DNA of 64,000 bases from Escherichia coli (GTDB lineage: Bacteria > Pseudomonadota > Gammaproteobacteria > Enterobacterales > Enterobacteriaceae), in NCBI RefSeq assembly GCF_024700885.2, contig NZ_CP117016.1; one strand, written 5' to 3'. Positions 57,158 to 57,319 of the stretch are shown piece by piece. The notes under the pieces are model-generated. The model was not told the origin of the DNA. It ran no database searches and saw only the letters and a program-made list of their open reading frames with translations. The stretch's first letter is position 1; each line of letters opens with the position of its first letter. A program made the position numbers and the translations under genes.

Positions 57158-57287
57158 TAACCAGGGGCAGTGATCACGCTGCCCCTGGTTCTTTATCTGA
57201 ATTTGCATTCAACTGGCGGATTAATCGTCAATTTAAGAAAAAGAGTTACACCGTCACCACTTCCGCGCACTGTATAAAAATCCTATA

Positions 57288-57303
57288 CTGTACGTATCGA
57301 CAG
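57288..57303 (+). promoter_or_regulatory. LexA box (CTGT-N8-ACAG) upstream of ydjM
   Basis: ctgtacgtatcgacag 17 bp upstream of the ydjM ATG; a second, degenerate CTGT-containing element lies at 57270-57290. Confidence 0.55.
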
Positions 57304-57319
57304 TTTAGTGAGTTTTATC

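Follow-up and report, generated by a model that had tools for sequence, protein, structure and literature searches.

A probable two-box LexA operator upstream of Escherichia coli ydjM and the conservation of its distal element

Under the standard SOS mechanism, repression by LexA is relieved by its RecA-stimulated self-cleavage. Operators with more than one LexA box have been described for several genes, and candidate sites are commonly compared by the heterology index (HI) of Lewis et al. (1994), the field's standard LexA-site score, applied here to 20-mers. In the double operator of lexA, no cooperativity between dimers was detected (PMC7440846). In Salmonella recN, a weak box of HI 12.97 lies 8 nt from the ATG and a strong one of HI 7.72 lies 26 nt from it, an offset of 18 bp. 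ydjM of Salmonella Typhimurium has two SOS boxes, 14 and 32 nt from its ATG, with HI of 9.12 and 12.85; induction of the two Salmonella genes was 39-fold for recN vs. 2.1-fold for ydjM (PMC8072944).

The tandem LexA operator of ydjM is itself already known: the gene has long been counted in the LexA regulon, and tandem sites have been published. A passage in PMC4951493 cites the tandem LexA-binding sites of E. coli ydjM as experimentally reported by Fernandez De Henestrosa et al. (2000). The gene is listed with the classical SOS genes at HI 9.0, with 2.5-fold induction by AZT and an 8.6-fold dependence on LexA cleavage (PMC11228462), and reached a log2 fold change of up to 2.6 with ciprofloxacin (PMC11002266). 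The copy considered here lies in a 64,000-nt stretch of E. coli DNA, the whole of which was analyzed and is referred to below as the window.

The ydjM locus and the scoring of LexA sites

Several complete E. coli chromosomes match the region between 56400 and 58100 at 100% identity, and the region was found in 5,423 of 5,426 complete E. coli genomes. Gene order in the matching E. coli records is hxpB-ydjM-tcyP: the ORF at 56489–57157 is annotated as hxpB (yniC) in matching genomes; the regulated gene, ydjM (57320–57910, + strand, 196 aa), is annotated as a metal-dependent hydrolase in identical ones; and tcyP (ydjN) occupies 58043–59434 according to the matching records. In Pfam, the protein encoded by ydjM hits PF04307 (“YdjM inner membrane protein”) with E = 2.2e-35. 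The operator tells something of the timing of expression of this protein, not of its role. The ATG at 57320 is the annotated start in E. coli records, and is invariant in 80 distinct aligned upstream sequences. There is also an in-frame GTG four codons before it (57308–57310), and the mechanically defined ORF is 200 aa long vs. the annotated 196.

A strong terminator-like hairpin on the + strand (57159–57190), beginning 2 nt past the hxpB stop and consisting of a 14-pair stem with nine G-C pairs and a 4-nt loop, splits ydjM from the upstream hxpB and so leaves the gene an upstream region of 162 bp to itself.

For site scoring, the HI matrix was recovered exactly by a linear fit to 140 published K-12 values (Table S1 of PMC12527982), with a maximum residual of 5e-5. 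The recovered matrix is symmetric, with integer counts summing to 38, equivalent to 19 sites, each counted in both orientations. The published HI of dinG (8.98) served to fix the penalty at positions 3 and 18, which are part of the invariant CTG/CAG. As completed, the matrix reproduces values from outside its construction: 12.09 for polB, 12.6 and 15.56 for two Lewis sites, and 12.85 for the Salmonella-type distal ydjM box. A matrix built straight from the 19 LexA-binding sites (Table S3 of PMC12527982) did not reproduce published HI values and was dropped. Of the Lewis sites, which are tabulated in PMC12527982, the weakest one bound by LexA has an HI of 12.6, and the strongest unbound one 15.5.

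The bare pattern CTGT-N8-ACAG is not significantly enriched in the window, with three matches vs. 0.82 expected; 4 of 100 shuffles reached three. The two exact matches other than that upstream of ydjM, at 14859–14874 and 39121–39136, have G+C-rich spacers (CTGTCCCCGTGTACAG and CTGTCAGGCGTGACAG), and the 20-mer around 14859 scores HI 18.0; these two look like chance matches. By HI, the best LexA-like 20-mers after the pair upstream of ydjM are at 24790–24809, 20879–20898, and 230–249 (HI 14.84, 15.00, and 15.08). Two of the three are inside long ORFs; the third is ~100 bp upstream of an ORF (353–1186) and has no right half-site. With 2.9 20-mers of HI 15 or below expected in the window, their number agrees with chance.

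Proximal and distal elements and their conservation

The sequence across both ydjM boxes to the ATG (57260–57322) is cttccgcgCACTGTATAAAAATCCTATACTGTACGTATCGACAGTTtagtgagttttatcATG. The core of the proximal element, CTGTACGTATCGACAG (57288–57303), has CTGT at 57288–57291 and ACAG at 57300–57303. Sixteen bases separate it from the ATG at 57320, which confirms a sequence-only reading of this DNA that had placed CTGT-N8-ACAG at these positions with the ATG 17 nt past its last base. The corresponding 20-mer, TACTGTACGTATCGACAGTT (57286–57305), ends 14 nt from the ATG. It is a CTG…CAG palindrome that agrees with the consensus TACTG(TA)5CAGTA at 16 of 20 positions, and it scores HI 9.07 (P = 4.2e-7 per position, 0.027 expected in the window), inside the range of LexA-bound sites (12.6 or less, against a working cut-off of 15). 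The sequence-only reading had suggested scoring with a LexA matrix; with HI, the proximal 20-mer proves to be the best of the 63,981 in the window, far from low-scoring. It is letter-for-letter the E. coli K-12 ydjM box (HI 9.0678, Table S1 of PMC12527982). Its position, read from the sequence, puts it in the ydjM promoter region, and DNA-damage induction of this gene is reported in the literature to depend on LexA cleavage. The SOS box already known for ydjM is this proximal element; the earlier assignment of a LexA box before ydjM is borne out by its score, its identity to the K-12 20-mer, and the published LexA-dependent induction.

The distal element is weaker. Its 20-mer, CACTGTATAAAAATCCTATA (57268–57287), lies 18 bp upstream of the proximal one, such that the two overlap by two bases (TA, 57286–57287) and their centers are 18 bp apart. 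The left half-site is near consensus, with a single mismatch (C for T at position 1), and the right half-site is degenerate, reading CCTATA in place of ACAGTA. The second CTGT is thus present (57270–57273), but the 16-mer that it begins, CTGTATAAAAATCCTA (57270–57285), ends in CCTA, without ACAG. In terms of the palindrome CTG-N10-CAG, the left CTG is there and the right triplet is CTA; CAG is missing in 80 of 80 species (see below). At HI 13.60 it ranks second among the 63,981 20-mers; P is 1.7e-5 per position, and 1.1 such sites would be expected in the window. This is under the customary cut-off of 15 (PMC11002266), and the element is borderline by score alone because it falls between the bound (12.6 or less) and unbound (15.5 or more) sites of the Lewis set. 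By arithmetic on the scan figures, the chance of a site this good within ~20 candidate offsets of the proximal box is roughly 3.5e-4. The distal 20-mer is also letter-for-letter the additional site listed at −52 of b1728 (ydjM) (PMC4576408), 57320 minus 52 being 57268. Comparison with published ydjM LexA sites, likewise suggested by the sequence-only reading, therefore ends in identity for both 20-mers (PMC12527982, PMC4576408).

A scan with the YdjM protein, limited to one genome per species, yielded 80 loci, in Escherichia, Citrobacter, Salmonella, Enterobacter, Kosakonia, Raoultella, Leclercia, Atlantibacter, Franconibacter, Cedecea, and other genera. The proximal box was found in all 80 of these Enterobacteriaceae species, with HI from 6.2 to 12.1 (median 7.85). 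The best distal box is exactly 18 bp upstream of it in 79, and 19 bp upstream in the remaining one; distal HI has a median of 15.0, with 75 of 80 at 15.5 or below. The distal left half is (T/C)ACTGTA(T/C) in 77 species, and the right half is CCTATA in 79 and includes CAG in none. Mean column identity is 0.94 for the proximal and 0.95 for the distal box, compared to 0.67 for the far upstream region (57190–57235) and 0.70 for third codon positions of ydjM. The distal element is thus as constrained as the strong box, and among its constrained bases are ACTG, for which a promoter hexamer gives no reason. In two species (loci L014 and L027) the distal CTGT has been lost while the rest of the element is kept.

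The sequence-only reading had judged that the second element fits the consensus poorly and had left a second box in doubt. The poor fit stands, with no right half-site and an HI of 13.6; the doubt is largely lifted by the published tandem sites and the register kept in 79 of 80 species. Taken together, these observations support the distal box as a recognized and conserved, if weak, LexA site, and speak in favor of a second site.

Conservation extends upstream of the boxes, to a block on the + strand, AAAGAGTTACACCGTCACCACTTCCGCG (57240–57267), with a mean column identity of 0.93 over 80 distinct sequences. No known motif was assigned to this block, which includes TTCCGC (57261–57266); it may hold the −35 region or bind some other factor. 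Most genera have GTGAC ahead of it and with this an inverted repeat, GTGAC-N13-GTCAC, of which E. coli lacks the left arm, having TAAGAA or TAAGAG at 57234–57239 instead. The repeat was considered as a CRP site and rejected, its right arm being one base off the CRP consensus in a by-eye comparison.

Within E. coli, the allele that the window holds upstream of ydjM is a minority one: 57236–57322 is found at 99% identity or more in 26 of 5,421 genomes, most of the others having 97.7%. Aligned with three other strains, it departs from the common E. coli allele at just two positions, neither of them within a box: 57239 (A for G) and 57266 (C for T). One E. coli strain has a T to C change at position 14 of the distal box, a variant that is common between genera. 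Another, NIPH17_0036 (locus L083), has a 7-bp deletion in the distal box, aligned to 57278–57284 and reading CACTGTATAA-------ATACTG, which removes the distal right half and turns the candidate −10 described below into AATACT. Either natural variation or an error in the assembly could account for the deletion.

Candidate promoters and alternative readings

A sigma-70 consensus scan of the + strand from 57100 to 57400 gave no canonical −35/−10 pair, so the −35 of the candidate described next is weak. The best candidate −10 is in CTATACT (57283–57289, + strand), that is, TATACT at 57284–57289 with a preceding C; all seven of its columns are 100% conserved. TATACT begins with TA and ends in T, the two key features of a −10, and CTATACT overlaps the right half of the distal box and the left end of the proximal one. 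We infer a −10 function for it because CTATACT is kept where other parts of the region are not: in L014 and L027, which have lost the distal CTGT, and in the latter also in the absence of TATAAA. TATACT is probably the −10 element, with transcription starting near 57296. A weak match to a −35, TTCCGC (57261–57266), is found 17 bp upstream.

The position of this hexamer also suggests a reason for the form of the distal box. The first bases of TATACT (TA, 57284–57285) sit where the distal box would need AG; occupation of these positions by a probable −10 element would explain why the right half is never consensus.

Other promoter elements were considered. TATAAA (57273–57278) is less likely than TATACT as a −10: it has no final T, is TACAAA in ~10 species, and is destroyed in L027. 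GTTACA (57245–57250) is too far from it, at 22 bp, to serve as its −35. RpoD holoenzyme alone binds the yniC-ydjM spacer, and a promoter CTGAAA-17-ATTAAT has been guessed there (PMC3946193). This corresponds to 57197–57225 in the window, which reads CTGAAT-17-ATTAAT, vs. CTGAAA in K-12, and falls in a part of the spacer that is poorly conserved between genera. The boxes overlap or follow each of the three candidate promoters, an arrangement that fits repression.

LexA could conceivably work through the proximal box alone, with the distal element kept for the promoter's sake (as a spacer, as the −10 region, or for the alternative −10 TATAAA at 57273–57278) and resembling half an SOS box through its TA-rich middle. 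TATAAA and CTATACT are indeed both inside it; CAG is found in its right half in 0 of 80 species; L014 and L027 do without the distal CTGT while keeping the remainder; its HI of 13.6 is borderline, with about one such site per 64 kb by chance and a species median of 15.0; and RegPrecise gives only one ydjM site, according to a passage in PMC4576408. The −10 hexamer does not, however, account for (T/C)ACTG at 57268–57272, which matches the most informative LexA positions and is held in a fixed 18-bp register in 77–79 of 80 species. The tandem binding cited as experimentally reported in the PMC4951493 passage also speaks against a lone proximal box, as does Salmonella recN, where a weak box and a strong one are likewise set 18 bp apart. 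Since ACTG is conserved, the register is fixed, and tandem binding is stated in the literature, we consider it unlikely that the distal element serves the promoter only.

A regulator other than LexA might instead bind the distal element together with the block at 57240–57267, either alongside LexA or in its place. The 93% conservation of a block with no assigned motif, and the GTGAC-N13-GTCAC repeat of most genera, would agree with such a protein, but E. coli lacks the left arm of the repeat, LexA and a −10 between them explain the distal element well, and LexA is the sole ydjM regulator mentioned in the literature passages covered; a second regulator in this role is very improbable. Nor is there much reason to regard both elements as functionless chance matches to a short palindrome. 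The count of the bare CTGT-N8-ACAG pattern, at 3 vs. 0.82 expected, is not significant and to that extent would allow it, but a proximal box with P = 4.2e-7 per position, 14 nt before a LexA-dependent gene and kept in 80 of 80 species, effectively refutes chance for that box, and leaves chance for the two together extremely improbable.

The proposed operator and known systems

The ydjM upstream region is very probably a two-box, LexA-repressed SOS operator. Its sequences, scores, window ranks, and conservation are established here, and LexA-dependent induction and tandem binding are taken from the papers cited above. In an undamaged cell, a LexA dimer would occupy the proximal box (57286–57305), covering the probable −10 TATACT and the presumed start near 57296. 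A second dimer may sit on the distal box (57268–57287) in vivo by way of the near-consensus left half-site, CACTGTAT; the right half being degenerate, this dimer would probably depend on its neighbor, through cooperative binding, or on LexA being present at high concentration. The pair of dimers would span about −29 to +10, and so exclude RNA polymerase. Upon DNA damage, RecA-stimulated self-cleavage of LexA would empty the operator, and ydjM would be transcribed.

A more elaborate version can be offered tentatively. The distal box may represent a conserved type of operator, with “one good half-site,” that has ceded its right half to CTATACT and binds a second dimer only with the help of the first; the 18-bp module of strong site plus half-site may be Enterobacteriaceae-wide; and the block at 57240–57267 (an invariant 25-bp block) would then be a candidate site for a second regulator of ydjM. 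As a set, these possibilities are doubtful.

Apart from correct annotation, the import of the analysis is small. What it adds to the published operator is an answer in numbers to the doubt about the second box, which has a borderline score yet is conserved as well as the strong box and in a fixed 18-bp register, and a simple account of the mismatch in the distal right half, as overlap with a probable −10.

Among described operators, that of lexA has in common with ydjM two LexA boxes in tandem at one promoter. Its boxes differ in that both are full palindromes with low HI (6.4 and 8.3), and they do not overlap. The colicin operators are nearer in geometry, with strong and weak SOS boxes overlapping at their ends, and for colicin, LexA cooperativity has been reported. 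They are otherwise unlike ydjM, being plasmid-borne and very tightly repressed, and their overlap is larger, with box centers about 15 bp apart. The likeness of ydjM to this cooperative type is one of geometry only, a strong and a weak box overlapping by 2 bp. recN resembles ydjM in having multiple adjacent boxes, a weak and a strong one 18 bp apart in Salmonella, and differs in having three boxes, with the weak box nearest the gene. The Salmonella ydjM boxes are closer still, their distances from the ATG (14 and 32 nt) being those found in the window. The tandem sites of E. coli K-12 ydjM are at the same locus, with both 20-mers identical and no difference within the boxes.
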